NCBI GenBank assembly: GCA_030674455.1
Contig: JAUSGQ010000007.1
Location: forward strand, 19,947-83,946
DNA from: a bacterium
GTDB taxonomy: Bacteria > Patescibacteriota > Minisyncoccia > Phycocordibacterales > UBA2100
Direction: 5' to 3'
DNA length: 64,000 nucleotides
Shown: one piece after another, positions 14,588-55,557 of the stretch
How positions within the stretch are numbered: the first letter of the stretch is position 1
Layout: each line of letters opens with the position of its first letter
The notes under the pieces: generated by a model
The model's database searches: none
Told to the model about the DNA's origin: nothing
What the model saw: only the letters and a program-made list of their open reading frames with translations
Translations under genes and position numbers: made by a program

Positions 14588-14686
14588 ACTTAATTATCTT
14601 GCTGTGTAAGTTATTGATCACGCTGGCCTCCTTACGGGGCATGCGACCGCCAAAGAAACTTTCTCAATTTTGCCAAGACAGAATGT

Positions 14687-14718
14687 CAACGATATCTCAC
14701 GGTCGTGAGATATCGTTG
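14687..14718. promoter_or_regulatory. perfect 15-bp inverted repeat CAACGATATCTCACG-GT-CGTGAGATATCGTTG (operator-like)
   Basis: The palindrome is visible on inspection. There is no T-run, so it is not a typical terminator. Confidence 0.4.
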
Positions 14719-15019
14719 AATGCTTGTGAGCTCCAAAATATGAAACTTAGCGCGCTTACGCAGTCCTAGAAATCGCAAATATGATACAATCGCCATCTAT
14801 GAATATTGACGAGTTGCAAGAAAAAAGCGACAAGATGTTCCATGACCATGGCGATATTCTTATAAAAGTCTTTTCCGTTCTCGTTGCGTTTATTCTCCTG
14901 GCTCTTTGGTTTGCATCTACTGTCCGTCCGCAGGATTTTGCGCCAACCGATATTCAGCAACAAAATAGCTAGAATCTGTTGCGCTGACTCGCCTCATTCA
15001 TACATGGTATTATCAACGT

Positions 15020-20302: not shown

Positions 20303-22378
20303 ATGAGTAAATCTGGCGTATTCAAGCTACGTAGTGATTATCGACCAGCTGGAGATCAACCTACGGCTATAAAGTCACTCGTCGACGGCTTGAAAGAAGG
20401 GAAACGACACCAGACACTACTTGGCGTCACCGGTTCCGGCAAGACCTTTACGATGGCAAATGTGATTGAAAAAACGCAGAAACCTACGCTCGTCATTGCG
20501 CACAACAAGACGCTTGCCGCTCAACTCACTGCGGAATATCGCGAGTTCTTTCCCGAAAATGCAGTGCATTACTTTGTTTCTTATTACGATTACTATCAGC
20601 CGGAAGCATATATGCCGATAAGCGATACATATATCGAAAAAGAATCGCAAGTAAATGAGGACATAGAAAGGCTGCGGCACGCGGCGACGCAGGCGCTGCT
20701 TACAAGAAAAGATGTCATTGTCGTCGCGTCGGTCTCCTGCATTTATGGCCTAGGTAGCCCGTTTGAGTACGAGAAAGTAAACATGAAGCTCACGAAAGGA
20801 GAGCCGCTCACTCGCGCCGCTCTTATGAGACGACTAATCGGTATGTATTTCGAAAGAGTTGCCGGCGACCTTTCGCCCGGCACTTTTCGCGCGCTTGGCT
20901 CGTACGTGGAGATCATGCCGGCAAACGAGAGAATTATTAAAAGAATCGACCTCTCACAAGGTAAAGTCTCTAAAATAGAAGAAATCGACGCGACAACGCG
21001 TGAATCATTAGGGACGCACGACGCAATATTTGTTTTCCCGGCGAAGCATTATGTGACACCAAAGGATGTGCAAGAACTTGCACTTACTGATATTGAGCTC
21101 GAGCTTAAGGAACAGTTAAAAAAGTTTGATGCGGCTGGCAAAATATTGGAGGCGGAGCGATTGAAGCGAAGGACTCGTCAGGACATCTCAATGATACGCG
21201 AGTTCGGATTCTGCAACGGTATTGAAAATTATTCGCGGCACTTCGACAGACGGCAAGCGGGAGAGCCGCCGCATACTCTGCTTTCGTATTTTACGAAGAA
21301 TGTTGGAAGTTCAACGGATTTTCTCACAATTATAGATGAATCGCACGTTACCGTTCCGCAGATAGGCGGCATGTACGCAGGAGACCGCGCGCGCAAGGAT
21401 ATGCTGGTGCAACACGGATTCCGGCTTCCGAGCGCGATTGATAACAGACCGCTCAATTTTGATGAATTCCAAGAGCGTGTCGGACAAACAATTTATACGA
21501 GCGCGACACCCGGAACGTATGAATTAGAACATAGCGGCAAACCTATCGAACAGGTCATCCGCCCTACAGGACTCGTTGACCCAGAAATTATCGTGAAGCC
21601 CATCGTGGGCGGTGGACCGAGGACGGTCCTCAAGGGAGCCCGAGGACCGTCCTCGGTCCCCGAGAAGTATCCGGGGCAGGTAAAGGATTTCATCGCCGAG
21701 GCAGAAATCGTTACCAAGCGGGGCGGACGCTCGATGGTCACCGTCCTTACGAAAAAAATGGCAGAAGATCTGACAACCTTTTTGCTCGAAAAGAAGATTA
21801 GAGCGCAGTATGTACATTCCGACGTGAAAACAATCGAAAGAATAGAAATTCTTACGAATTTCCGCAAGGGCACGTTTGATGTATTGGTCGGCGTCAACTT
21901 ATTGCGAGAAGGATTGGATTTGCCCGAAGTCGAGCTCGTAGGAATTATGGACGCCGATAAAGAGGGCTTTCTGCGTTCCGAAACTTCACTCATCCAAACA
22001 ATCGGCCGAGCTGCGAGAAACGTGCTGGGTCGTGTGATTTTGTACGCGGATTCTCCTACGGGTTCTATGGAGAGGGCAATTCGCGTGACAAATGAGAGGC
22101 GCGCCCGCCAAATTGAATACAATAAGAAGCATGGTATTACGCCAAAAACGATAAAGACTAGGATAAAAGATATCGTGGGAGATATCGTAAGCGCAAGAAG
22201 GCGTGCGGTATTTGACCTTGCAAAGCTCGATTCTGCGGCATATGCGGGAAGCAAGGCAAGCTTAATCACAGCCAAGCGACGAGAAATGCGAGAGGCAGCG
22301 AGTATACTTGATTTTGAAACAGCCGCGCTTTTGCGGGATGAAATTCAAGAACTTGAAAAGGGTAAACGAAAGCGATAA
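20303..22378 (+). CDS. uvrB: excinuclease ABC subunit B
   Basis: Helicase motifs GVTGSGKT, the beta-hairpin region YYDYYQPEAY and a C-terminal UVR domain. Confidence 0.95.
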   Translation: MSKSGVFKLRSDYRPAGDQPTAIKSLVDGLKEGKRHQTLLGVTGSGKTFTMANVIEKTQKPTLVIAHNKTLAAQLTAEYREFFPENAVHYFVSYYDYYQPEAYMPISDTYIEKESQVNEDIERLRHAATQALLTRKDVIVVASVSCIYGLGSPFEYEKVNMKLTKGEPLTRAALMRRLIGMYFERVAGDLSPGTFRALGSYVEIMPANERIIKRIDLSQGKVSKIEEIDATTRESLGTHDAIFVFPAKHYVTPKDVQELALTDIELELKEQLKKFDAAGKILEAERLKRRTRQDISMIREFGFCNGIENYSRHFDRRQAGEPPHTLLSYFTKNVGSSTDFLTIIDESHVTVPQIGGMYAGDRARKDMLVQHGFRLPSAIDNRPLNFDEFQERVGQTIYTSATPGTYELEHSGKPIEQVIRPTGLVDPEIIVKPIVGGGPRTVLKGARGPSSVPEKYPGQVKDFIAEAEIVTKRGGRSMVTVLTKKMAEDLTTFLLEKKIRAQYVHSDVKTIERIEILTNFRKGTFDVLVGVNLLREGLDLPEVELVGIMDADKEGFLRSETSLIQTIGRAARNVLGRVILYADSPTGSMERAIRVTNERRARQIEYNKKHGITPKTIKTRIKDIVGDIVSARRRAVFDLAKLDSAAYAGSKASLITAKRREMREAASILDFETAALLRDEIQELEKGKRKR
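21614..21662. repeat. in-frame palindromic insert in uvrB (CCGAGGACGGTCCTC-AAGGGAGC-CGAGGACCGTCCTCGG), encoding GGGPRTVLKGARGPSSVPE
   Basis: The inverted repeat is visible. Relative to E. coli UvrB as I recall it, this region carries an extra segment of about 20 aa. Confidence 0.7.
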
Positions 22379-24536: not shown

Positions 24537-24590
24537 ATGTTATATTGCTCAGTACCAACCCTAGCGCAAAGCGAGGGTCGGTTTGTGTTT

Positions 24591-27287
24591 ATGTCAAAAA
24601 AAAACGAACATTCAGGGGAAGCCGAGAAAATCGTAGTTAAAGGCGCACGCACGCATAACTTGAAGAACATCACGGTAGAAATACCGCGGAATAAAATGGT
24701 GGTTTTTACAGGCCTTTCCGGCTCTGGGAAATCATCTCTCGCTTTTGACACCATATTTGCCGAGGGCCAGCGCAAATACGTGGAGTCTCTTTCTGCCTAT
24801 GCCCGTCAGTTCTTGCGGCAAATGCAAAAACCGGATGTCGATGAGATATCCGGCCTATCTCCTGCCATTTCAATAGACCAAAAATCGCGCTCGAATAATC
24901 CACGTTCCACAGTCGCTACAATTACCGAAATCTATGATTATCTGCGTGTTCTCTATGCGAGAGTAGGCAAACCTCACTGCACTATCTGCGGCAGGGAAGT
25001 TAAGAAACATACGAATGAGGAGATACTTGAGTCAGTTCTCAAAATAGTGGACAAGGCTCGAAAGTACCAAGGAGAGACCTTAAAATACCCAAGGTCTCAC
25101 CTTAAGGTTCAAGATAAGAAGCTCACAAAAAATGTATCGAGCGCAAAGGTCACAATAACGTCACCGGTGGTTGTCGGTAGAAAAGGGGAGTACTACCAGC
25201 TTCTTTATGACTTGCTCAATAAGGGATTCGAGAAAGTAATAATTGATGGCGAAGAGAAGAAGCTGCGTGAAAGAATCATTCTCGAGAAGAATCATAAACA
25301 CGATATAGATGTCGTGGTCGATGAAATATTTGTCAGTGAATTTGCCGACGATGCGAAAGCTGCGCGCGAACGGGCATCGGAAGCTATCGAAAGAGCTCTG
25401 CATGAATCCAATGGGCTGGTAAAGATAATAGGCGCGAGCGGAGAATCACACATTGTCTCGGCAAAGTTTATGTGCCCGTACGACGGATTCTCATTTCCTG
25501 AAATCGAGCCGCGGCTCTTTTCGTTCAATTCTCCGCATGGCGCTTGCCCCGCATGCAATGGCCTAGGTTCTAAGTATTTCTTTGGCGACGAGCCGTGCGA
25601 TGTGTGTAATGGTGCCCGGTTGCGTCCGGAGGCATTAAATGTGTTTCTTGGGACAAATAGTCGAGGAGACACCTCGCAAGCGAGGAGCCACCTCGACTCA
25701 CCCCATGGTCTGCATATTGTCGATTTAAGCTCGTCATCTATAGACGACGCAAAGAAATTCTTTGACTCGCTTAAACTTACCAAAAAGGAAGAGGAAATAT
25801 CCAAGGTCGTAATCAAAGAAATTATGAGCCGGCTGCGCTTTATGCAAGATGTCGGCATTGAATACTTAACACTCGACCGAAAAGCCAACACTCTATCGGG
25901 CGGTGAAGCACAGCGCATTCGTCTGGCATCACAGCTTGGAAGCGGGCTCGTTGGCGCGCTCTATGTGCTTGATGAGCCGACAATCGGGCTTCACCAGCGC
26001 GACAACGACAAACTTATTGAGACTCTCAAACACCTGCGCGATATCGGCAATACAGTAATCGTGGTAGAACACGATGAGGACACCATTTTCGCATCCGATT
26101 ACATCGTGGATCTAGGCCCTGGCGCTGGCATTCATGGAGGTAATGTCGTGGTGTCGGGGTGGCTCGATGAGCTATTGACCGCCAAATCCAATAAGTCCGG
26201 CTCGCGTACTCTTGCGTATCTACGTGGAGAGTCATCAATTGAAACGCCGGAGAAATGGCGAACTGCTGACAGAGGAAAGATAAAAATTCGCGGGGCTTCA
26301 AAATTTAACATTAAAAATATAAACGTTGATATACCGCTCGGCAAACTTGTGGCAATCACGGGGGTGTCTGGTTCCGGCAAGTCGACGTTTCTCTATGAGA
26401 TGCTTCATCGCAATTTGCTGGCGCGCTTTGATAAGCGGTACCGTACGGCAAAAATCTACAACTGCAAGGAATTCAGCGGAACGGAATATCTTTCACGCTC
26501 CATATTGATTGATCAATCGCCCATAGGAAGAACCCCGCGCTCAAATCCTGCAACGTACACAGGTGCTTTCACGCACATTCGCGACCTATTCGCGATGAGC
26601 GAGGATGCTCGAGCGCGCGGATGGGGTCCGGGACGATTTAGCTTCAATGTAAAAGGCGGGCGATGTGAGGTATGCCAGGGCAACGGCCTTGTCGCTGTCG
26701 AAATGCACTTTTTGCCGACGGTCTATGTCACATGCGACATGTGCAACGGAAAACGTTTTATGAAGGAGACACTTGATGTTAAATATAAAAAGAAAAGCAT
26801 TTATGACGTGTTATCCATGACCGTCGAAGAGGCCTCGGCCTTCTTTGAGGATGTTCCTGCAATATCTGACAGGTTAAAAACTTTGTCTGATGTTGGCCTG
26901 GACTATCTAGAACTCGGCCAGAGCGCGACAACTCTATCCGGCGGTGAAGCGCAGCGAGTGAAAATTGCGTCAGAACTATATCGGCCGTTGGATGCAAAAA
27001 CGATGTACCTGTTGGATGAACCCACTGTGGGACTCCACTACGACGACGTGCAAAAACTTATCGATATATTGCAAAAGCTGGTTCAGCGGGGAAATAGCGT
27101 CGTTGTTATCGAACACAATCTTGATGTCTTGAAATGCGCAGATTGGATTATGGATATGGGACCGGAAGGAGGCGCCGGAGGCGGCGAAATCGTAGCCCGA
27201 GGAACGCCGCTCGAAGTTTCTAAAACCGACGGCTCATACACCGGATATTATCTGAAGCGAGTTTTGAAGAGAAAGGTAAAAGATTGA
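24591..27287 (+). CDS. uvrA: excinuclease ABC subunit A
   Basis: Two ABC modules with zinc-finger Cys clusters. The start is set at Met 24591 to avoid overlapping the terminator. Confidence 0.95.
25660..25697. repeat. in-frame imperfect palindrome or direct repeat in uvrA (GTCGAGGAGACACCTCGC-AA-GCGAGGAGCCACCTCGAC), encoding [14 protein letters not shown]
   Basis: It uses the same CGAGGA/TCCTCG word as the uvrB insert. Relative to E. coli UvrA as I recall it, this region is about 18 aa longer. Confidence 0.55.
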
Positions 27288-27303
27288 GATGTCATCTCAA
27301 TCT
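27281..27303. terminator. hairpin AGATTGAGATG-T-CATCTCAATCT overlapping the uvrA stop codon (family of 3)
   Basis: 11-bp arms. Related copies lie at 36390..36420 and 41847..41867. Confidence 0.5.
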
Positions 27304-27538: not shown

Positions 27539-30500
27539 TTATGTATATGCATCGACCGAGATAGATTTGAGTTCAGACGCCTTAATTCCTGCAAAAGCCA
27601 TGATGAATGCCTCGGCAAGCTGGCGATTGGTTATGAGCGGTATATTCAAGTCCACCGCTTTTCGGCGGATTATGTAGCCGTCTATCGCATCGCGGCCAAA
27701 TGCTTGAGCGGGAATATTTATTATCAAATCTACTTTACCTTTCTCTATAAGCGTTCCTACATTGGGCTCCTTGCCTCCGATTTTATAAACCTTTTCACAT
27801 GCAATTCCATTTTCTCTCATAAAATCGGCAGTATGCTCGGTGGCAAATAACTTGAAATTCATTTTGGCCAATTCTTGCAGAGCGGATAGTAATTTAATTT
27901 TATTTTCCTCTTTTCCCAAGGAAATCAGTATATTTCCCGACGCTTTGGTCGGGATCCCGACCTCGCTTCGCGAGCGTCGGGACTTATACGGCAATCTCCG
28001 ACGCTTTGGTCGGGGCAGGCGGAATCCTGAAGCAAGCATTGATTTAATCAGAGCTTCTGAAAATGTATCACCAAAACAAGCGACTTCGCCGGTAGAAGCC
28101 ATTTCCACGTTGGAAACGGGGTCGGCACCCTTTATGCGCGCATAGGAGAATTGCGGCGACTTTACTGCAATGTAATCAAGTTCAAGGGTGCGATAATCGC
28201 CGGAAACGTCTTTACCGAGCATCGCGCGCGTAGCAATATCAATAAAGTTATATCCCGTAGCTTTTGACACGAAAGGAAAGCTTCGAGATGAACGAACATT
28301 GCACTCAATGACTTGCAAATGGTTATCTTTTGCGATGAATTGAATATTGAACGGGCCGGTAATTTTCAGTTCTTTGACGACGTCCTTCGTGATGTGTTTA
28401 GCTCGTCGAATTGTCTCCATATATGTGCGCTGGGGAGGCAAAACCACCGTAGCGTCGCCAGAGTGCGTGCCGGCATTTTCGACGTGCTCCGTAATCGCGT
28501 AAATTATGAGCTTCCCGCGCGAAGCAACTCCGTCAATTTCAATTTCCCGCGCATTCTCGATAAATTTGGAAATCACGACCGGATGTTCCGTAGAGATATC
28601 AACCGCGCGTTTGAGAAAGCGCAAAAGAGATGTCTCGTCGTGCGCAACGCTCATCGCAGAGCCGGAGAGAACATATGACGGCCGGACAAGCACGGGATAT
28701 CCGATTCGCGCCGCAGCTATCGCTGCTTCTTTATGAGTAGTAAGTTCTACCCACTCGGGCTGATCAATTTCGAGCCTATCAAGAAGTTTAGAGAATGTGT
28801 GCCTGTCTTCGGCGCGGTCTATATCTTCTGGTTTTGTTCCCATGATTCTTACTCCTCGCTTATGCAGTGGGAGCGCGAGATTATTCGGAATTTGGCCGCC
28901 AGTAGAAATTACGACTCCTCGCGCTTTCTCAAATTGATAAATATCTAGAACACGCTCAAGCGAAAGTTCTTCAAAATACAGTCGGCTCGACATGTCGTAG
29001 TCGGTTGAAACGGTCTCCGGATTTGAATTTATCATTATCGTTTCGTATTCATTTTTTGAAAGAGTTTTTAACGCTTGTACGCAAGACCAATCAAATTCTA
29101 CCGACGAACCGATGCAATACGGTCCGCTTCCAAGGACGATCATACTTTTCTTGGTGCGACCTATATCATTCTCGGTCCCGTTATACGTCACATACAGATA
29201 ATTTGTTTTGGCGGGAAATTCTCCAGCCAAAGTGTCGATTTGCTTTATAACTGGCAGGATTTTGTGGCGCATTCGCTCCTGTCGGATCTTATCCTCAGTA
29301 CTTTTAATCAATGTGGCAATTTGAATATCAGAAAAACCAAGCTTCTTAGCCTCGAGCATGTCTTCTCTAAGAAGGTCTGACCTTCCAGGAAGGTCAGACC
29401 TTCTGAGATTTCTCGAGCAACGCATGATGTTCTTCATTTTTTCTAGAAACCACGGATCAATGCCGCCGGAAAGACGGCTGATCTTTGAGACGGACGTACC
29501 TCTGCGAAGTGCCTCTGCAATGGCAAAAATGCGGCGGGTAGTCGGGTGCTTGATTTCATCCAGATAATTTGCCACGCGAAAGTTACCATTTTTATGCGCT
29601 ACAAAACCATCCGCGCCAATGGAAAGCATACGAATAGCTTTCTGCAGTACCTCCTCAAAACTTCTGCCGATTGCCATCACTTCTCCCACACTTTTCATCT
29701 CCGTACCAATTTGCGTGATGGCATTCTCAAATTTCGTCAAATCCCAGCGCGGCATTTTAAGCACGATGTAATCAAGCGCCGGCTCGAAACAGGCCGTCGT
29801 GGATTTGGTTACCGAGTTTTTTAGTTGCGGCAGAGTAAAGCCCATTGCGAGTTTCGCCGCAATGAACGCGAGCGGATATCCTGTGGCCTTTGAGGCAAGC
29901 GCAGATGAGCGGGAAAGGCGCGCATTAACTTCTATGACGCGATAATCTCCGGTTTTCGGATGAAGCGCGTACTGTATATTGCATTCTCCCACGACGCCGA
30001 GATGCCTGATGGTCTTTATCGCGATTTCGCGCAAGCGATGATACTCCTCGTTCGTAAGAGTTTGTGACGGCGCCACGACCATACTTTCGCCCGTATGAAT
30101 GCCCATCGGGTCTATGTTTTCCATATTGCAAACGGAAATGCAGTTGTCGGTTCTGTCGCGCACAATTTCATACTCAACTTCTTTCCAACCGCACAAATCT
30201 TCTTCGATCAATACCTGCGGACTCGAGCCAAAGATTTCTGACAGTTTAGCGACAAGTTCTTTTTCCGTACGAACCACTCCGGAGCCAAGGCCGCCCAAGG
30301 CGAATCCCGCGCGCAACATGACCGGATAACCGATTTTTGTCGCCGCCTTTTTGGCATCAGATATATTTCTTGCTGCGAAACTTCGCGCTGTCTTAACATC
30401 AATTTTTTGCAGCCGCTTTATGAACATGTCTCTATCTTCTGTTTCGCGTATGACAGATACCGGTGTTCCCAAAACCTGCACTTTGTATTTAGAGAGAATC

Positions 30501-30838
30501 CCTTTCTCCTCCAGTTCAAGGCCGAGATTAAGCGCGGTTTGGCCGCCGAACCCTAGGAGAATCGCATCGGGTTTTTCTTTCTTGATAACCTGTACGGCAA
30601 ACGGCAAGGTAAGTGGCAAGAGGTAGACGACGTCTGCTACGTTTTCACTCTTTGCATCAGTTCCTTGAGCTGGCGAGTCCGTTTGAACTGTTGCGATATT
30701 CGGATTTATGAGTATGACGCGAATGCCTTCTTCTTTAAGAGCCTTAATCGCTTGTGTGCCGGAGTAATCAAATTCTCCGGCCTGACCGATTTTAAGACCG
30801 CCTGAACCGAGCAACAATACTTTTTTTATGGTCGTCAT
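27539..30838 (-). CDS. carB: carbamoyl-phosphate synthase large subunit
   Basis: 1099 aa with two ATP-grasp halves and an MGS-like C-terminal domain. Confidence 0.95.
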   Translation of the reverse strand: MTTIKKVLLLGSGGLKIGQAGEFDYSGTQAIKALKEEGIRVILINPNIATVQTDSPAQGTDAKSENVADVVYLLPLTLPFAVQVIKKEKPDAILLGFGGQTALNLGLELEEKGILSKYKVQVLGTPVSVIRETEDRDMFIKRLQKIDVKTARSFAARNISDAKKAATKIGYPVMLRAGFALGGLGSGVVRTEKELVAKLSEIFGSSPQVLIEEDLCGWKEVEYEIVRDRTDNCISVCNMENIDPMGIHTGESMVVAPSQTLTNEEYHRLREIAIKTIRHLGVVGECNIQYALHPKTGDYRVIEVNARLSRSSALASKATGYPLAFIAAKLAMGFTLPQLKNSVTKSTTACFEPALDYIVLKMPRWDLTKFENAITQIGTEMKSVGEVMAIGRSFEEVLQKAIRMLSIGADGFVAHKNGNFRVANYLDEIKHPTTRRIFAIAEALRRGTSVSKISRLSGGIDPWFLEKMKNIMRCSRNLRRSDLPGRSDLLREDMLEAKKLGFSDIQIATLIKSTEDKIRQERMRHKILPVIKQIDTLAGEFPAKTNYLYVTYNGTENDIGRTKKSMIVLGSGPYCIGSSVEFDWSCVQALKTLSKNEYETIMINSNPETVSTDYDMSSRLYFEELSLERVLDIYQFEKARGVVISTGGQIPNNLALPLHKRGVRIMGTKPEDIDRAEDRHTFSKLLDRLEIDQPEWVELTTHKEAAIAAARIGYPVLVRPSYVLSGSAMSVAHDETSLLRFLKRAVDISTEHPVVISKFIENAREIEIDGVASRGKLIIYAITEHVENAGTHSGDATVVLPPQRTYMETIRRAKHITKDVVKELKITGPFNIQFIAKDNHLQVIECNVRSSRSFPFVSKATGYNFIDIATRAMLGKDVSGDYRTLELDYIAVKSPQFSYARIKGADPVSNVEMASTGEVACFGDTFSEALIKSMLASGFRLPRPKRRRLPYKSRRSRSEVGIPTKASGNILISLGKEENKIKLLSALQELAKMNFKLFATEHTADFMRENGIACEKVYKIGGKEPNVGTLIEKGKVDLIINIPAQAFGRDAIDGYIIRRKAVDLNIPLITNRQLAEAFIMAFAGIKASELKSISVDAYT
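27935..28015. repeat. structured insert in the carB C-terminal region (direct repeats TCCCGACGCTTTGGTCGGG x2 with CTCGCTTCGCGAG between), encoding RPKRRRLPYKSRRSRSEVGIPTKAS on the minus strand
   Basis: Nested hairpins are visible. An arginine-rich segment of about 25 aa is absent from E. coli CarB at this position, as I recall it. Confidence 0.6.
29370..29404. repeat. perfect 17-1-17 palindrome AGAAGGTCTGACCTTCC-A-GGAAGGTCAGACCTTCT in frame in carB, encoding RRSDLPGRSDL
   Basis: The palindrome reads RSDLPGRSDL on both strands. It appears to be an 11-12-aa insertion relative to other CarB sequences. Confidence 0.75.
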
Positions 30839-30955: not shown

Positions 30956-32014
30956 CTAGATGCTGATAGAACGTATAAACTCATCAAATATCCATGCGGT
31001 GTCCGTTGGCCCCGGTGCTGCCTCGGGGTGGAACTGCACAGCTCGCCAGGCTTTTGATTTGTGCTTGATGCCCTCCACGCTTCCGTCATTCGCGTTGGTG
31101 AACCATACAGCCCAATCATGCGGAAGCGATTTTGCGTCAACAGCATACCCGTGATTTTGCGATGTTATGTAACAACGGCCTGTCTCCTGATCTACGCATG
31201 GTTGATTTTGTGAGCGATGACCGTATTTGAGCTTGTATGTACTTCCGCCCGCGGCGAGCGCCAAGAGTTGAGTTCCGAGGCAGATGCCTAATATCGGCTT
31301 TGGCATAAGCATTGCACGCTTGAGATTTTCAATTGTATTGCCGCACATGTTTGGGTCGCCGGGCCCGTTGGAAATCACAAGCGCATCATGCGGCTCATTC
31401 GCAAAATCATAGTCCCATGGAACGCGTACGATCGTAATTTCAGGGCGCACGAGTGAGCGCAAAATATTTTCCTTCATCCCGCAGTCAACTATAACGATGG
31501 TAGTGGCCCCATTGCCGTACGTTTCCGGCTTTTTTATACTGACCCGCGCAACGAGATTCTCCTTATTCGGGTCAACAAAAGCCGATGCAGTGAGGCGTCG
31601 CCTCACTGCATTCACAGGCCTGGCGTCTATTATGCCGAGCATCACACCGTGTTCGCGCAATTTTTTTGCAAGCGCACGCGTATCTACGCCCGTAATTGCC
31701 GGAACACCGGAGCGCTTAAGCCACTCCGATAATGACTCGCACGCCAACTGGTGCGAATAATTCTCGGAATAGTCCGCCACGATTAGGCCAGCGGCCTGGA
31801 TTTTATCGGATTCAAAATATTTACGTTCTGGCACGCCATAATTTCCCACCAGAGGATAGCTCAAGACAATGATTTGTCCTGCATATGAGGGGTCCGATAA
31901 GCTCTCTACATATCCGACCATCCCCGTGTTAAAAACCACCTCGCCGGATGCCGATACGGGTGCGCCAAAGCTTTTACCCTCAAATACTGTCCCGTCTTTA
32001 AGAGTTAATTTCAT
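30956..32014 (-). CDS. carA: carbamoyl-phosphate synthase small subunit (glutamine amidotransferase)
   Basis: GATase class I motifs, including ICLGHQ-like GICLGTQ. Confidence 0.9.
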   Translation of the reverse strand: MKLTLKDGTVFEGKSFGAPVSASGEVVFNTGMVGYVESLSDPSYAGQIIVLSYPLVGNYGVPERKYFESDKIQAAGLIVADYSENYSHQLACESLSEWLKRSGVPAITGVDTRALAKKLREHGVMLGIIDARPVNAVRRRLTASAFVDPNKENLVARVSIKKPETYGNGATTIVIVDCGMKENILRSLVRPEITIVRVPWDYDFANEPHDALVISNGPGDPNMCGNTIENLKRAMLMPKPILGICLGTQLLALAAGGSTYKLKYGHRSQNQPCVDQETGRCYITSQNHGYAVDAKSLPHDWAVWFTNANDGSVEGIKHKSKAWRAVQFHPEAAPGPTDTAWIFDEFIRSISI

Positions 32015-32238
32015 AATGTATGAGACCCTACTTCGCTTCCTCCTACGTCAAGACTACGGAGGACAAGAAAGCTACGAAGGGTTGCTCTCTCATGAAAATG
32101 CCCGCTTACTGCGGGCAGAAATGGAGAGCAAAAAAATACACCCGGGCGGGTGTTTCTCTTATTAATTCCTTGCGAGTTCATTAAAGTTGAATTATATGCC
32201 CATATTTGCCGGTGTCAAATTTTAACCTGGCTGTGGAT

Positions 32239-33561
32239 ATGTCGCGTGAGTATACTGGAAACATGGTGCGCGATGACTTAATCAAATTTAAATTGCCCGA
32301 CAGTCCGGGTATATACTATTATCGAAATTCGAGGGGCAAAATTCTATACATTGGTAAAGCTACATCTCTGCGCGACCGCGTACGGAGCTATTTTTTGTCA
32401 GGTCTATCGGAATCTCGAAGCACGGCAATCGCAGCAATGATAGATGAGACGCACTCCGTCACATGGCAAACGACCGAGTCGGTTCTTGAAGCTCTGATAC
32501 TCGAAGCGAATGAGATAAAAAAACATCAGCCGAAATACAATGCACGAGAAAAGGACGACAAGAGCTTTAATTTTCTCGTAATCACAAAGGAAGATTTCCC
32601 GCGCGTTTTAGTAATTCGCGGCCGCGAACTATTTTCTCCACTTATCGCTAATCGCTATTCGCTAACCGCTATCTTCGGCCCATATCCGCAGGGACGTTCA
32701 CTGCAAGAAGCTCTGAAAATCGTTCGGAAAATATTTCCTTTCCGCGATAAATGCATTCCATGTGACACTGCGGAAAAATCCTTACTTTCTAATTCGCGCG
32801 AATTAGAAAGTAAAGAAACTCATGTACATCTTAAACATAAATGCAGGCCGTGCTTCAATCATCAGATAGGATTATGTCCCGGTGTATGCAGTGGGGAAAT
32901 ATCAAAAAACGATTATGCTCGAACTATACGACACATTAAGACTCTATTTTCAGGGAAAATAAAGAGGTTGAAGAGGGATCTGGAACGAGAAATGAGAGCC
33001 GAATCGAAAGCCGAGCGATTTGAAAAGGCCGCCATATTGCGTCGACAAATTGGTTCGTTAAACCACATACGCGACGTATCGCTAATAAATAACGATAACA
33101 TGGCCGATTTACCCAGGAAACCTACGAGGATAGAGGCGTATGACGTGGCACATACGTCGGGATCGGAGACAGTAGCCGTAATGACTGTTGTGAATAATGG
33201 CGAGCCCGAAAAGAGTTCCTACAGAAAATTCAAGATTCAAACTGCTGCAAACGACGACATTGGAGCACTCAAAGAGGTTCTCTCACGCCGCCTGGCGCAC
33301 TCGGAGTGGCCCTTGCCGAGCGTGTTTGTTGTGGACGGAGGAACTGCGCAATTGCGTGCGGCCGCAAATATTCTAAAAGACGCTGGTATAATGATTCCCG
33401 TGGTATCTGTGGTAAAAAACGAATTTCATAAACCCGAACGGCTCATGGGAGATACGAATGCAATTAAGACCTTGGGAAAAGAAATTCTTCTTGCCAATCA
33501 AGAAGCGCATCGTTTTGCGATTACGTATCATAGAAAACGACGAGGTCGACTAACGATATGA
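32239..33561 (+). CDS. uvrC: excinuclease ABC subunit C, short form lacking C-terminal HhH
   Basis: GIY-YIG motif (PGIYYY...ILYIGKA), a UVR domain and an RNase H-like endonuclease domain. The track start at 32206 is also possible. Confidence 0.85.
   Translation: MSREYTGNMVRDDLIKFKLPDSPGIYYYRNSRGKILYIGKATSLRDRVRSYFLSGLSESRSTAIAAMIDETHSVTWQTTESVLEALILEANEIKKHQPKYNAREKDDKSFNFLVITKEDFPRVLVIRGRELFSPLIANRYSLTAIFGPYPQGRSLQEALKIVRKIFPFRDKCIPCDTAEKSLLSNSRELESKETHVHLKHKCRPCFNHQIGLCPGVCSGEISKNDYARTIRHIKTLFSGKIKRLKRDLEREMRAESKAERFEKAAILRRQIGSLNHIRDVSLINNDNMADLPRKPTRIEAYDVAHTSGSETVAVMTVVNNGEPEKSSYRKFKIQTAANDDIGALKEVLSRRLAHSEWPLPSVFVVDGGTAQLRAAANILKDAGIMIPVVSVVKNEFHKPERLMGDTNAIKTLGKEILLANQEAHRFAITYHRKRRGRLTI
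32782..32813. repeat. perfect 32-bp palindrome TTACTTTCTAATTCGC|GCGAATTAGAAAGTAA in frame in uvrC (encodes LSNSRELESK)
   Basis: TTCGCGCGAA core, as in the intergenic copies and the yggS copy. Confidence 0.8.
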
Positions 33562-35507: not shown

Positions 35508-35580
35508 GGGCCGGTAGTTCAGTGGTAGAACGTCTCATTTGCAATGAGAAGGTCGGGGGTTCGATTCCTCTCCGGTCCAC
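35508..35580 (+). tRNA. tRNA-Ala (anticodon UGC)
   Basis: Acceptor stem GGGCCGG/CCGGTCC with the G3:U70 Ala identity pair, anticodon loop CTCATTTGCAATGAG (TGC) and T-loop GGTTCGATTCC. Confidence 0.9.
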
Positions 35581-35650: not shown

Positions 35651-36376
35651 ATGATCTCTAACGGGGTCCACAAAATGATTAGTGCAAATCTTAGGAATAT
35701 AGAAGGCGAAATGAGTAGCGCGGGTAGGAAAGTTACCTTGGTTGCTGTAACAAAAAGCGTGGGGATAGACGAAACAAACGAAATCATTAAAGCGGGAGTG
35801 CGCGCAATCGGAGAAAATAGAGTCGAGGATTTTGAAAAGAAAATCACGCAATTGCTTCCGGTAGAAAAGCATTTCATCGGGCAAATTCAATCGCGAAAGA
35901 TTAAACGAATTGTAGAACTATTTGATGTTATTCAATCTGTCGATTCAATCGAGCACTTAGAGAAAATCGAGAGGGAGGCAGTCTCTCAAAACAAAAAAAT
36001 AAAAATTCTTCTACAGTTCAATATTTCACGGGAGGCGCAAAGAGGCGGCTTCGAACCAAGTGATGTCGTACAAATTATTAAAGCTATTGGAAGGTATTCA
36101 CTATCGGTTAATTCGCGCGAATTAACCGATAAGAGCAATAGCATTTTGTCGATTCAACATGTGGAAATCATCGGAGTGATGGGAATGGCTAGCGATACTA
36201 CAGATACTGAAGTGGTGAGAGAGCAGTTTCGCTTGCTAAAAGATATTAGAGACCAATTGCAGTCGAAATATCCTAAAATCAAAGAACTGTCGATGGGCAT
36301 GTCTAGTGACTGCCAAATCGCCCTGGAGGAAGGCGCCACAATACTGCGAATCGGCAGGGCACTATTCAGCAATTAG
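35651..36376 (+). CDS. yggS: YggS-family pyridoxal phosphate homeostasis protein
   Basis: VTKSV, GENRVQ-like GENRVE, HFIGQIQSRK and SMGMSSD motifs. Confidence 0.85.
   Translation: MISNGVHKMISANLRNIEGEMSSAGRKVTLVAVTKSVGIDETNEIIKAGVRAIGENRVEDFEKKITQLLPVEKHFIGQIQSRKIKRIVELFDVIQSVDSIEHLEKIEREAVSQNKKIKILLQFNISREAQRGGFEPSDVVQIIKAIGRYSLSVNSRELTDKSNSILSIQHVEIIGVMGMASDTTDTEVVREQFRLLKDIRDQLQSKYPKIKELSMGMSSDCQIALEEGATILRIGRALFSN
36105..36128. repeat. perfect 24-bp palindrome CGGTTAATTCGC|GCGAATTAACCG in frame in yggS (encodes SVNSRELTDK)
   Basis: Same TTCGCGCGAA core and the same reading frame (NSREL) as the uvrC copy. Confidence 0.8.
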
Positions 36377-36389
36377 CGCGTTTCTTTGA

Positions 36390-36420
36390 CAATCCAATGA
36401 GATGTCATCTCATTGGATTG
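36390..36420. terminator. hairpin CAATCCAATGAGATG-T-CATCTCATTGGATTG, 14 nt after the yggS stop
   Basis: 15-bp arms. It belongs to the same GAGATGNCATCTC family as 27281 and 41847. Confidence 0.5.
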
Positions 36421-41846: not shown

Positions 41847-41867
41847 ATTGAGATGACATCTCAATCC
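41847..41867. terminator. hairpin GATTGAGATG-A-CATCTCAATC after rplU (family of 3)
   Basis: 10-bp arms. A second hairpin ATGAGGTT-TAA-CCTCAT follows. Confidence 0.5.
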
Positions 41868-41890
41868 GATGAGGTTTAACCTCATAGATT

Positions 41891-44109: not shown

Positions 44110-44197
44110 AAAGCCATGCATTTTTGACGGTGCGGGTTTATCTTCCCTTCTACAGGTGCCTATCATGACCGATAGGCCGTCAAAAATGCATGGCTTT
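44110..44197. other. long structured element with 21-bp inverted repeat AAAGCCATGCATTTTTGACGG / CCGTCAAAAATGCATGGCTTT and an inner hairpin CCTATC..GATAGG, inside a 457-nt noncoding region
   Basis: The inverted repeat is visible on inspection. This is the largest intergenic region in the window. Confidence 0.5.
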
Positions 44198-45476: not shown

Positions 45477-45537
45477 GATTTTGGGGTCCGACCGATATAA
45501 CGCTAGCAAATGCGGTCGCATTTGCTAGCGTTATAGA

Positions 45538-50449: not shown

Positions 50450-50953
50450 ATGGAATCAGTAGCGCAATTCACAGACACTACGATAGTGATGTTTGCAAAA
50501 CTGGTTCTTGCTGTTGTGTTGGGGGGAATCATCGGCACGGAGCGCGCCGTCATGGCGCGGCAGGCGGCCGGCACTCGCACGTTCGGCCTTGTCGCCCTCG
50601 GAGCATGTCTCTTTGTCCTCACCGCGAATTACGTTGATTTGGCTCATCTCGGTATCGTTAATTTCGACCCGATGCGGGTAGCCGCGGCAATCATTACGGG
50701 CGTTGGTTTCTTGGGAGGCGGACTCATTATTTTCAGAGGCGAGACTCAACACGGCATCACTACAGCGGCCGGTTTGTGGATCTCTTCCGCCGTCGGAATT
50801 GCCGTCGCTTTTGGACTATACGCGATAGCGATATTCTCCACCGTTCTCGTTCTTTTGATTTTTACAGGTATGTGGTACATGGAAAACCGCTTCAAGCACT
50901 GGTTCGAAGACCACAAACCGGAAATAGAAAGAAAAGCTGATAACGGTTTGTAG
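50450..50953 (+). CDS. mgtC: MgtC/SapB family membrane protein
   Basis: LGGIIGTER motif and 4-5 TM helices; 167 aa. Confidence 0.8.
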   Translation: MESVAQFTDTTIVMFAKLVLAVVLGGIIGTERAVMARQAAGTRTFGLVALGACLFVLTANYVDLAHLGIVNFDPMRVAAAIITGVGFLGGGLIIFRGETQHGITTAAGLWISSAVGIAVAFGLYAIAIFSTVLVLLIFTGMWYMENRFKHWFEDHKPEIERKADNGL

Positions 50954-51040
50954 AAAATACTCGAGGTGACTCCTTGCATTGGGCGAGGTGTCTCCTCGGG
51001 TATTTTCCCAGCTATGCCAGTCCTCTGCTATACTGCCTCA

Positions 51041-51844
51041 ATGTCCACCTACTACAAACCCGATAGAAACCCCGGTTGGAATTACGGCGGAGAGCGATTC
51101 CGTCTTTCGCGTTCTAAAATTGCGCTTTTCCTCGACTGCCCGCGATGCTTCTATGTCGACAACAAGCTCGGCACCGCCCGTCCACCCGGATATCCGTTTA
51201 ATCTTAACAGCGCGGTGGATGCGCTTTTAAAGAAAGAATTCGACACACATAGAAACGGGAAGACAACGCATCCCCTCATGAAAGCTTACGGATTAGATGC
51301 CGTACCGTTCGCCGACGAGCGCATGGATGAATGGCGCGATTCACTGCGGCGAGGCATACAGTTTAAGCACAAAACAGGTCTTTTGGTCACAGGAGGTGTC
51401 GACGATGTGTGGGTAAGGCCCAACGGAGAACTAATAATTGTAGATTACAAAGCCACGAGTAAGGATGCAAAAATAACCGAGCTTGACCAGGAATGGCAGG
51501 ATGGTTACAGACGACAGATGGAAATTTACCAATGGCTGTTCCGGCAGAACGGTTTCAAAGTTTCTGATACAGGGTACTTTGTTTACGCAAACGCAGGCAG
51601 AGACAAAGAAGCATTCGACGGCGTGCTCAATTTTGAAGTTACTCTCGTTCCATACAAAGGCGACGACTCGTGGGTTGAGGGTAAGCTCGTAGAACTGAAA
51701 AAATGTCTTGATAGCGACGAACTTCCCGAGGCATCCGCGGAGTGCGATTATTGCAGGTACCGCGAAGCTGTCGGAAAAAAGATGCTGGCATTCACAAAGA
51801 AGCCGCAAAAGAAAACAGCGGGTGACGGGACTCTAGGAATATGA
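51041..51844 (+). CDS. Cas4-like PD-(D/E)XK nuclease with Cys cluster (standalone, no CRISPR nearby)
   Basis: N-terminal CPRC, the IVDYKA motif and a C-terminal ECDYC motif. The track start at 50966 is also possible. Confidence 0.5.
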   Translation: MSTYYKPDRNPGWNYGGERFRLSRSKIALFLDCPRCFYVDNKLGTARPPGYPFNLNSAVDALLKKEFDTHRNGKTTHPLMKAYGLDAVPFADERMDEWRDSLRRGIQFKHKTGLLVTGGVDDVWVRPNGELIIVDYKATSKDAKITELDQEWQDGYRRQMEIYQWLFRQNGFKVSDTGYFVYANAGRDKEAFDGVLNFEVTLVPYKGDDSWVEGKLVELKKCLDSDELPEASAECDYCRYREAVGKKMLAFTKKPQKKTAGDGTLGI

Positions 51845-51977: not shown

Positions 51978-52712
51978 ATGATTATGACCGAGAAGCAGGA
52001 ACAGGAATCGGACGTTAAGATGGAAGAATCATGGAAAAACGCGTTAAAGGATGAATTCGGGCAGGACTACTTCAAGCAACTGCGGGAATTCGTCAAAGGC
52101 GAGTACAAGCATGCCATCGTGTACCCGCCGCCAAAGAATATCTTTCGCGCGTTTGAGCTTTGCCCCTTTGATAAAGTCGAGGTTGTGCTACTCGGACAAG
52201 ACCCATATCACGGCCCGAAACAGGCAAATGGACTCTGTTTCGCAGTGAGCGAAGGGCTTGCTCTACCGCCCTCTCTTCAGAATATCTTTAAGGAATTGGC
52301 CGCAGATATGGGATTGTCCCACGATGCCTTGCTTGCCCGTCGAAGCCTTGGCGAAGTCGGGGCGAAGAAGGGTGGAACTCTTGAGGATTGGGCCAAGCAA
52401 GGTGTTCTACTACTCAATGCAACATTGACCGTGGCAGCGCGCGCGCCCGGTTCGCATCAAGGAAAGGGGTGGGAAGAATTTACCGATGCGGTTATACGCA
52501 AACTTTCTAACGAGCGCGAGAATCTAGTCTTTATTCTTTGGGGCAACTACGCAAAAGCCAAAGGCGCGCACATCGACCGCACCAAGCACCTCGTCATTGA
52601 ATCCGCGCACCCTTCGCCTTTTTCCGCCGACCGCTTCTTCGGCTCTAAACCTTTCAGCAAAACGAACGAATATCTGAAAGCCCACGACAAAAAGCCGATT
52701 GATTGGTTGTAA
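51978..52712 (+). CDS. ung: uracil-DNA glycosylase, family 1
   Basis: GQDPYHGP, LLLNATLTV and HPSPFSA motifs, with C-terminal KKPIDWL. Confidence 0.9.
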   Translation: MIMTEKQEQESDVKMEESWKNALKDEFGQDYFKQLREFVKGEYKHAIVYPPPKNIFRAFELCPFDKVEVVLLGQDPYHGPKQANGLCFAVSEGLALPPSLQNIFKELAADMGLSHDALLARRSLGEVGAKKGGTLEDWAKQGVLLLNATLTVAARAPGSHQGKGWEEFTDAVIRKLSNERENLVFILWGNYAKAKGAHIDRTKHLVIESAHPSPFSADRFFGSKPFSKTNEYLKAHDKKPIDWL

Positions 52713-52713
52713 T

Positions 52714-52742
52714 CTTCTACCAAGGTCTTACCTTGGTAGAAG
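52714..52742. repeat. 27-bp GTAG-type palindrome CTTCTACCAAGGT-CTT-ACCTTGGTAGAAG (REP-like, left flank of RAYT). It begins 2 nt after the ung stop, and its right arm encodes the RAYT C-terminal LLPR.
   Basis: The palindrome is visible. Inverted-centre copies lie at 53439..53465 and 53235..53258. Confidence 0.85.
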
Positions 52743-53420
52743 TTCGTTATCATCTTGCCGAGCATATATTTTTGCCTCCTCGATAAGTTGGTCAATCGTT
52801 TGCGAAGCATCGAGTATTTCCAACACCGGCTCTTTGTTTATGATAGAGGACTCCGGACGCGTTCCTGAGTAGTCGAGAAAACTGGAGTACTGATACTCCG
52901 ATAAAAATTTCCGCAAATTCTTTTCGTTCTGTATCGAACATTGTTTCCATTTCGGCTCTATTAGCTCTGCAGGGTTTGCATGAATATAACTAACTACTCT
53001 ATTTAGATTCTGATCCGACTCTATTCGTTTCGCCTTAAAGGTGCCTTGAAACAATGCTCCGTTACGTTCGTATTTGATATTGAAGTACATCGTGTAGCCC
53101 GTTCCGAGCTGTCGCATAAAGGATGTGATGCCTCCATAATTATGTTCACGTAAAAACAGGTGATGATGGTTTGGCATCAGGCAGTACGCGCCAATGTCCA
53201 CGAGTTTTTCTTTTCTCTCAACTGCCGCCACGAGTTCTACCAAGGTCTTACCTTGGTTGATGTTGCTGATATGTATTGGTTCGCGACTGTTACATGCATA
53301 TAGAAGCATCACAAATCGCTCGTAGTCTTCTGGATTTGTGAAAACGACCCGCTTATCAACGCCGCGATTGTAGCAGTGATACCATTCGTTCGGTGCGAAG
53401 GAAATTGTTCGCTGTCCCAT
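52728..53420 (-). mobile_element. IS200-like HUH tyrosine transposase (REP-associated tyrosine transposase, RAYT-like)
   Basis: WYHCYNRG (YHVxxRG-like), HUH motif CLMPNHHHLFL and catalytic-Tyr region YIHANPAE. The track ORF starts at TTG 53510, but the likely start is Met 53420. Confidence 0.75.
53235..53258. repeat. internal copy of the RAYT-flank palindrome (TTCTACCAAGGTCTTACCTTGGTTGA) in frame inside the RAYT gene (encodes INQGKTLVEL)
   Basis: Same word, with arms degenerate by 2 nt. Confidence 0.7.
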
Positions 53421-53438
53421 ATCGATAATAATAACATG

Positions 53439-53465
53439 TTCTACCAAGGTAAGACCTTGGTAGAG
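53439..53465. repeat. right-flank palindrome TTCTACCAAGGT-AAG-ACCTTGGTAGAG (centre inverted relative to the left copy)
   Basis: The REP pair is in inverted orientation around the RAYT gene. Confidence 0.85.
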
Positions 53466-53484: not shown

Positions 53485-53574
53485 TTCTTCGGCTCAAAAC
53501 CCTTAGGCAAGACGAATGAATACCTTGTGGATCTTCCAAAGGTCTCTCCTCGAGAATTCAGTATTTTGAGGTGA
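53485..53574 (+). pseudogene. diverged duplicate of the ung 3' terminus (encodes FFGSKPLGKTNEYL... then diverges)
   Basis: About 80% nucleotide identity to ung 52634..52680 (FFGSKPFSKTNEYL). There is no upstream coding context. Confidence 0.7.
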
Positions 53575-53730
53575 GGCCTTGGGGATTTTTAAGGTTTAAC
53601 CTTGGTTGCATAACGAGTTTTCTCTCCCTTTACTGACTACGTACTACTAACTACTGACTGCCAAGCCAATTGACTCTCTCTCTCTGATTTGAGATAGTGT
53701 CGCCAGTCGACCTAATGCATTAGGTCTTAT

Positions 53731-55329: not shown

Positions 55330-55557
55330 TACTATCGCCTTATCGCACCCAAAGCAATTTTGAATAATAAACTTCTTTTAATCATGACTAATAATCATGA
55401 CAAATAGAGCGAATATCGGCAGATAAAACACTCTGTACATACTTCATGCGACCGCATGATGTATGTACACATGGATTTCTACCAATATCAGAACCTGTAA
55501 CCCGAATCTCTGAGGGCACTTACATGACGAACGGATGGTGGGGTATAATCTTCACAC

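Follow-up and report, generated by a model that had tools for sequence, protein, structure and literature searches.

The stretch of bacterial DNA analysed here, 64 kb of contig JAUSGQ010000007.1 (hereafter the window), carries the nucleotide excision repair (NER) genes uvrB and uvrA, both of which contain palindromic insertions that keep the reading frame, and, approximately 30 kb from these insertions, a gene for a Y1/HUH transposase that resembles the RAYTs, the tyrosine transposases associated with repetitive extragenic palindromes (REPs). The UvrB proteins closest to that of the window come from metagenome-assembled genomes of Kaiserbacteria, Paceibacteria and Parcubacteria, and the host is a Kaiserbacteria-like bacterium of the ultra-small candidate phyla radiation (CPR) group.

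Palindromic insertions in uvrB and uvrA

The uvrB insertion reads CCGAGGACGGTCCTC-AAGGGAGC-CCGAGGACCGTCCTCGG (21614-21662), which is the sequence given in the initial annotation except that one C had been dropped there. The 15-bp stem assigned to it at that time was an underestimate: the arms, GGACCGAGGACGGTCCTC and GAGGACCGTCCTCGGTCC, are 18 nt each, 100% complementary and separated by a gap of 10 nt (21614-21631 / 21642-21659). The predicted RNA fold has an energy of -47 kcal/mol (z = -6.3), and none of 200 shuffled sequences was equally stable. The palindrome is a doublet of two units, GAGG-ACGGT-CCTC and GAGG-ACCGT-CCTC, which are inverted with respect to one another and have G and C as their loops. 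As had been claimed, the insertion is in frame: it would encode GGGPRTVLKGARGPSSVPE within the 691-aa UvrB. Residues 435-456 of this protein (22 aa, approximately nt 21605-21670), with the palindrome inside them, have no counterpart in the UvrB of B. caldotenax (2fdc_A). An alignment and a weak AlphaFold model place the insertion where the second helicase domain begins, after the strand ..IIVKP and before the helix GQVKDF..; in this model, which is poor (predicted local distance difference test, pLDDT, of 64, from 60 close homologs), residues 436-454 form a low-confidence coil between the strand and the helix.

In uvrA there are two such insertions. The string already noticed in the initial annotation, GTCGAGGAGACACCTCGC-AA-GCGAGGAGCCACCTCGAC, is indeed present at 25660-25697 (site 2) and is an imperfect palindrome, with arms of 19 nt that are 84% complementary (RNA fold z = -5.2). 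Its units, GAGG-AGACA-CCTC and GAGG-AGCCA-CCTC, are arranged as a direct tandem with the loops AGACA and AGCCA, and the UvrA residues that enclose the palindrome (373-390, 18 aa) have no counterpart in the solved structure 9gxk_A. The other insertion (site 1) lies in a segment that is unmatched by 9gxk_A and in which length varies among orthologs. The insertions that had been put at roughly 18-20 aa are, relative to solved structures, true in-frame insertions of 22 aa in UvrB and 18 aa in UvrA, and the alignments on which that claim depended do reveal length differences in both proteins. Separately, the HMMER alignment of UvrA with 9gxk_A is split around UvrA residues ~340-350, where the segment matching 9gxk_A ~347-421 is apparently gone; judging from this alignment, part of a UvrA domain may be missing in this lineage.

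A dispersed family of hairpin repeats

The uvrB and uvrA insertions are united by the motif CGAGG-N5-CCTCG, which matches seven times in the window against 1.85 expected. The broader form RAGG-N5-CCTY occurs 19 times against 2.7 expected, the largest number obtained in 100 shuffles being 7, and hairpins with a stem of at least 13 bp are also in excess (19 vs 0.4 in dinucleotide shuffles). The kinship originally proposed for the two insertions is borne out by a common (C)GAGG-N5-CCTC(G) unit, a doublet layout and hairpin potential. The search motif first put forward for it, CGAGGA-N(1-20)-TCCTCG, is found at one site in the window and is not the signature of the family. Nor is the family specific to excision repair, as units are also present in carB, in carA, in the transposase gene and in intergenic DNA: the 19 RAGG-N5-CCTY units comprise two in uvrB, two at each of the uvrA sites, two in carB, one in carA, one at 41871, two at 50953-51007, six in and around 52728-53420, and one in alaS, this last match being probably fortuitous.

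The copies are dispersed, an exact 15-mer being common to uvrA and the site at 50984; they can form hairpins, with arms of 13-25 nt and RNA fold z-scores of -3.7 to -6.7 for six elements; and they are often paired, with seven doublets in the window and paired units at uvrB, both uvrA sites, carB and the intergenic site at 50953. These are properties of REPs and of REPINs (REP doublets forming hairpins). In one respect the family departs from them: 11 of the 19 units are not extragenic but lie inside open reading frames (ORFs), in frame. Since intragenic exceptions have been published, this location is a deviation from the name REP and not from the kind. Rfam recognised no family at any of the elements, its single match in the window being a tRNA gene (35508-35579).

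A RAYT-like transposase and its REPs

The product of the transposase gene matches the Pfam model Y1_Tnp (PF01797; E = 3.9e-8, 33.9 bits vs a cutoff of 23), and H85, H87 and Y145 are invariant among 32 homologs, which identifies it as a Y1/HUH enzyme. Its best NCBIfam model is that of the REP-associated tyrosine transposases (NF047646, 44.1 bits). While a single-sequence search against the PDB gave no match, the AlphaFold model of the protein (pLDDT 86.5) has as its best PDB fold match 4er8_A (E = 8e-6; template modelling score, TM, 0.67 by target length), in which the E. coli RAYT is complexed with a REP hairpin; this match outranks the IS200/IS605 transposases. It is the fold comparison that settles the RAYT-like identity.

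REP copies are found on both flanks of the gene, at 53440-53464 and 52712-52744. The flanking REP reads CTACCAAGGT-NNN-ACCTTGGTAG, and its CTAC...GTAG ends also occur at some metagenomic loci (L101, L104, L127). Homologs of the transposase are numerous (2246 at E <= 1e-10), with labels that include Kaiserbacteria, Paceibacteria and Parcubacteria, and JGI calls some of them RayT. We fetched 80 metagenomic loci with RAYT homologs, 70 of which had enough flanking sequence: the same palindrome is present on both flanks in 49 of the 70, with the RAGG-N5-CCTY core in 26 of these 49, and doublets adjoin the RAYT genes at L101, L112 and L121. Repeats on the two flanks of the transposase gene form the REPtron arrangement by which REP/RAYT systems are defined. 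In 22 of the 49 loci the RAYT ORF itself contains an extra copy of the palindrome, at a position that is conserved.

This internal copy, seen in L098, L105, L111, L117, L118, L121, L122, L127, L143-L157 and others, is located around aa 55-60 (around aa 150 in a clade further removed) and may have an autoregulatory role or be a favoured target. Many of the homologs (P0122-P0240) are on contigs of approximately 0.8-3 kb, a hint that metagenome assemblies are broken at the flanking repeats. In the window, a minus-strand mini-ORF at 53570-53620 corresponds to the REP doublet upstream of the RAYT-like gene and reads MQPRLNLKNPQGLTSKY followed by a stop; it is probably not a gene, and illustrates what the elements encode when they are read.

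The copies inside genes and those beside RAYT genes are linked by sequence. The uvrA site-2 unit, CGAGGAGACACCTCG, is present exactly at 50984-50998, as its reverse complement, and in the uvrA of the relative L081; the intergenic doublet at 50953-51007 includes CGAGGTGTCTCCTCG, the exact reverse complement of that unit. In L120 the RAYT homolog is flanked by three copies of the same unit that have one mismatch, and in L133 copies with two mismatches are found on both sides of the RAYT homolog. The stems of the REP that flanks the RAYT-like gene of the window recur identically in carB of the relative L082. The spacer of the uvrB doublet, AAGGGAGCCC (AAAGGGTCCC in L082), resembles those of uvrA site 1 (AAAATACCC) and of the doublet upstream of the RAYT-like gene (AAAAATCCCC), and the latter doublet would encode PRLNLKNPQGLT, which is close to the UvrB insertion PRSDLKNPQGLT of the ortholog P0051.

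Turnover at the insertion sites

We compared the window with eight syntenic loci of relatives (L081-L088), which have the gene order uvrB-murB-..-uvrA-carB-carA-uvrC; a separate scan of genome contigs with a UvrB pattern gave loci L001-L080, from many phyla and with 51-64% identity. In L081, L082 and L084 the UvrB loop holds the element of the window, with paired compensatory substitutions in its arms. The same loop holds an unrelated perfect palindrome with 28-nt arms in L083 (GCA_039732165.1; CGGGATTT-CGT-AAATCCCG), a different palindrome with 21-nt arms in L087 (GCA_016186695.1; GGGAGAT-CGT-ATCTCCC) and CGACTT-ACG-AAGTCG as a direct doublet in L086; L085 has no insertion. Among 60 Kaiserbacteria-like UvrB orthologs the loop is empty in 18, carries an insertion of the RTVL/RSDL type in 18 and other insertions in 24. 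The insert peptides are unrelated across lineages, and in a rough neighbour-joining tree the insertion types are scattered, with empty alleles sister to occupied ones.

All the in-gene palindromes fall on gaps of variable length among the syntenic orthologs, and the same turnover was seen at both uvrA sites, in carB, in carA and at one uvrC site. The carB element is kept at the same site in L081, and an identical 17-mer is found in carA of L084. In L082 the exact 13-mer AAGGACSGTCCTT is present in uvrB (twice), uvrA and uvrC, and the family AACGACTTACGAWGTCGTT occurs at three different loci in three genomes. RAGG units are nearly missing from L083, L086 and L087, where other palindromes are found. 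The repeat families are genome-specific. When genomes are compared, identity is 78-93% for the elements of uvrB, carB and carA and 71-86% for that of uvrA site 2, whereas the host genes have reached saturation at synonymous third positions (29-39%). Either the elements arose after the genes had diverged, or they are constrained at the nucleotide level, and both possibilities fit a maintained repeat population.

The relatives also contain another class of palindromes, perfect and with ACG/CGT triloops (L083 7965-8020; L086 11302-11347; L087 11316-11357; L088 1587-1615, 8444-8490 and 16242-16276; L081 368-386 and 1068-1109; L084 20263-20299), with an exact 23-mer at two of the L088 loci and one family that recurs at three different loci in three genomes. 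Palindromes of this class adjoin no RAYT gene in the sampled loci.

Other features of the window

The coordinates of the genes and elements are collected in Table 1.

Table 1. Genes and repeat elements of the window, with their positions in the 64-kb stretch
Feature	Position	Strand	Details
uvrB	20303..22378	+	691 aa; phmmer vs UvrB structures E = 1e-230; 100% identical to P0001, annotated UvrB
REPIN-like inverted doublet in uvrB	21614..21659		units GAGGACGGTCCTC (21619-21631) and GAGGACCGTCCTC (21642-21654); spacer AAGGGAGCCC
uvrA	24537..27287	+	916-aa ORF; phmmer vs UvrA structures E = 2e-295; real start may be M at 24591
uvrA site 1	25069..25103		in-frame doublet AAGGAGAGACCTT-aaaataccc-AAGGTCTCACCTT; encodes 13 residues
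uvrA site 2	25659..25698		direct doublet GAGGAGACACCTC-gcaagc-GAGGAGCCACCTC within imperfect palindrome with 19-nt arms; 18-aa insertion
In-frame doublet in carB	29366..29408		gene 27539..30838, minus strand; AAGGTCTGACCTT-ccagg-AAGGTCAGACCTT; 21-nt arms
In-frame single unit in carA, long arms	31585..31611		gene 30956..32014, minus strand; ATGCAGTGAGGCG-t-CGCCTCACTGCAT
Single unit	41871..41883		GAGGTTTAACCTC; between convergent genes
Intergenic doublet	50953..51007		starts at stop codon of MgtC-like gene; 25-nt arms; -37 kcal/mol, z = -6.7
REP at 3' end of RAYT-like gene	52712..52744		identical type; overlaps stop; between convergent genes
RAYT-like Y1/HUH transposase	52728..53420	-	230 aa; HUH in PNHHHLFL, Tyr in SYIHANP
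REP inside RAYT-like ORF	53236..53260		identical type; in frame; peptide ..NQGKTLVE..
REP on 5' flank of RAYT-like gene	53440..53464		TCTACCAAGGT-aag-ACCTTGGTAGA; CTAC...GTAG ends
Three more units upstream of RAYT-like gene	53539..53603		include doublet with spacer AAAAATCCCC

Directly downstream of the intergenic doublet (50953-51007) there is a gene of the PD-(D/E)XK nuclease family (50966-51844). Other palindromes were also observed. A second family, with the core ATTCGCGCGAAT, has four copies (1558, 2627, 32792, 36111; 0.03 expected), which lie within palindromes at 1546-1581, 2615-2650, 32779-32816 and 36102-36131 with outer arms that differ by copy; two are intergenic, one lies in frame in a variable insertion of uvrC and one is inside a gene for a YggS-like pyridoxal phosphate protein. 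The UvrC in question (32206-33561) has only 451 aa, with GIY-YIG, UVR and RNase-H-like domains, and Pfam reports no C-terminal helix-hairpin-helix in it. A third family, TGAGATG-T-CATCTCA, is found at gene ends (27285-27299, 36398-36412 and 41849-41863; three copies vs 0.01 expected), and at 27285 its TGA is the stop codon of uvrA. Further long, perfect or nearly perfect intergenic palindromes include an ACATTCCAAnATTCT pair (750-787 and 1393-1426), three with a (G/A)CG-gt/ac-CG(C/T) centre (14686-14719, 45496-45535 and 55434-55469) and a perfect 21-nt inverted repeat whose halves are 46 nt apart (44110-44197). These further intergenic palindromes may be terminators or more repeat families.

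Discussion

The window contains a dispersed hairpin family whose members occupy protein loops in frame, a RAYT-like gene in the layout of a REPtron, and sequence links between the in-gene and the RAYT-flanking copies. We consider it probable that the uvrB and uvrA insertions are intragenic elements of the REP/REPIN-like type that belong to a RAYT system of this CPR bacterium, in which the RAYT would mobilise the elements and the insertions would be translated and neutral for the proteins that carry them. By analogy with TnpA(REP) and the IS200/IS605 enzymes, the HUH/Y1 enzyme would bind the hairpin in single-stranded DNA and would cut and rejoin it, so that copies spread or are kept. Copies would survive where the loop is tolerant, the frame is kept and no stop is introduced, producing extra surface loops of 15-25 aa, and the surviving ones would be those of UvrB, UvrA (two sites), CarB, CarA and the transposase itself; intergenic copies at gene ends would fold as terminator or stabiliser hairpins. 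An occupied loop would then serve as a neutral landing pad in which elements are lost, replaced or homogenised, which would explain why unrelated palindromes, or none, are found at one orthologous site.

Several observations weigh against this explanation: (i) The score of the transposase is under the equivalog cutoff of NF047646 (80), so that the protein would belong to a distant clade. (ii) Profile searches against the PDB are weak and do not discriminate between the ISDra2 TnpA (0.03) and 4er8 (0.16). (iii) The classical 5' GTAG (or CGTC) tag is absent from the ends of the uvrB and uvrA insertions. (iv) The outer arms of the doublets are specific to each copy and yet perfectly complementary; cut-and-paste of a fixed element is thus insufficient, and a local inverted duplication in the formation of the doublets is hinted at. 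(v) The copy and RAYT numbers have only 64 kb of the genome behind them. (vi) The weakest link is that the uvrB-type unit, GAGGAC-S-GTCCTC, lies beside no RAYT gene in the 80 loci examined; what would tie this unit to the RAYT is a shared core, architecture and spacer.

A bolder version of this explanation, which we find conceivable if doubtful, is that the REPs and REPINs of CPR bacteria are targeted to, and not merely filtered at, a few codon-level hot spots in housekeeping genes. The candidates would be the UvrB loop after PTGLxDPxIxVxP, the pair of loops in UvrA, and further loops of CarA, CarB and UvrC, and each would be taken over in turn by REP families whose RAYTs co-evolve. Were this true, the excess in excision repair genes, which has been noted in other phyla too, would reflect a functional coupling of hairpin-processing transposases with NER, and not tolerance alone.

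The palindromes might instead have been made and kept locally, with no transposase, by template switching (fold-back copying or quasipalindrome correction) in indel-tolerant loops, the likeness between loci being due to convergence or gene conversion. Perfect arms of 18, 21 and 28 nt that change by paired substitutions speak for such an origin, as do the copy-specific complementary outer arms, the unrelated palindromes at orthologous sites and the ACG/CGT-loop class with its missing RAYT link in the sampled loci. We nevertheless regard it as unlikely: identical units of 13-23 nt are present at non-orthologous loci, both within and between genomes, a common core flanks RAYT genes at dozens of loci, and conservation of the elements far exceeds that of neutral sites, the opposite of what free drift would produce.

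Alternatively, the hairpins or the loops that they encode could be selected functional parts of the repair genes, either as mRNA structures that pause translation between the UvrB domains or set mRNA stability, or as peptides that modify the activity of UvrA and UvrB, in line with the mutator idea of Di Nocera et al. Conservation at the nucleotide level with compensatory changes, very stable RNA folds and the repeated occupation of one loop in many lineages would all suit a functional role, and so would the distribution of the elements: three of the six in-gene RAGG-type elements, or four of eight if the ATTCGCGCGAAT family is included (uvrC and the YggS-like gene), lie in NER genes, which account for about 11% of the window's coding sequence, and the literature already records REPs in excess in repair genes (PMC3733652). 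This enrichment is suggestive, its test being post hoc and confounded because uvrB, uvrA, carB, carA and uvrC share one 11-kb stretch. Since 18 of 60 close orthologs have no insertion and sister pairs differ, since the peptides are unrelated across lineages, and since the same elements are present in carA, carB, the transposase gene and intergenic DNA, we think a selected function very unlikely. Chance similarity or an assembly artefact, for which nothing speaks except the shortness of the motif, can be dismissed given the shuffle controls and the recurrence of the insertions in independent NCBI, ENA and JGI assemblies.

Two other candidates were rejected: a spliced or bypassed element, as every ortholog examined keeps the frame and has no stops, and a conserved regulatory hairpin, in view of the empty orthologs and of the same units at unrelated loci.

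Relation to known systems

The system that we favour, of intragenic REPs with a cognate RAYT, has much in common with the REPtrons known from E. coli, Pseudomonas and other Proteobacteria: short hairpin repeats (13-45 nt), often arranged in doublets that can fold into one longer hairpin; a Y1/HUH gene with the repeats on either side; a genome- or lineage-specific family; intergenic copies at the 3' ends of genes; and a 4er8-type fold. There are also clear differences: (i) the host is a member of the CPR (Patescibacteria); (ii) the core is RAGG-N5-CCTY, with GTAG present only in the RAYT-flanking subset; (iii) 11 of the 19 units are in genes, in frame; (iv) 22 of the 49 RAYT loci have an internal copy in the ORF; and (v) the transposase of the window has approximately 230 aa with a C-terminal extension, whereas the 4er8 RAYT has 165 aa.

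A similar scenario, and the classic in-frame one, is offered by the Rickettsia palindromic elements (RPEs; Ogata et al. 2000, cited in PMC3733652), which reportedly interrupt numerous housekeeping genes of a small genome without loss of the frame and are tolerated as surface loops. RPE-1 is 100-150 bp long, and no dedicated transposase is known for these elements. Those described here are 27-55 bp long and are accompanied by a RAYT-like gene; they are not RPEs, and the likeness is behavioural only. The coding palindromes and hairpin elements of mitochondrial genes, for example in Nematomorpha, also consist of perfect inverted repeats in coding sequence, of which both arms are translated in the mitochondrial case, but they are organellar, reach 284 bp and have no association with a transposase (PMC6649704).

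The closest precedent is the work of Di Nocera, De Gregorio and Rocco (2013; BMC Genomics 14:522, PMC3733652), who reported single or dimeric REPs encoding 20-30 aa inside uvrA and uvrB, namely in uvrB of R. conorii and in uvrA of Thioalkalivibrio and of Opitutus terrae, with two insertions each. They also found REPs inside other repair and housekeeping genes, remarked that chance could hardly account for their excess in repair genes, and discussed a mutator idea for the REPs in repair genes. Theirs is the same phenomenon, in other phyla and with other repeat sequences, so that REPs inside uvrA and uvrB of other bacteria are already known. What differs from that study is that we demonstrate different families in one orthologous loop and a link between in-gene and RAYT-flanking copies. 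In the searched library no paper joins RAYT with CPR terms, and a search for palindromic in-frame insertions in the CPR found nothing specific. The CPR host is thus new, and other new features are the RAGG-N5-CCTY core, how densely in-frame copies are packed, the presence of a copy within the ORF of the RAYT, and the way in which families replace one another at a single orthologous loop.

Significance

These findings bear on the assembly and annotation of CPR genomes, as the palindromes break assemblies and give spurious protein 'insertions' in alignments. They also independently repeat the association between intragenic REPs and uvrABC, which is published and unexplained, and they provide a natural series of alleles (empty, occupied and replaced) for studying the gain and loss of REPs. 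Even CPR genomes of about 1 Mb maintain a REP/RAYT system, whose repeats decorate essential proteins (UvrA, UvrB, CarA and CarB) and may account for part of the variation in protein length among CPR bacteria.

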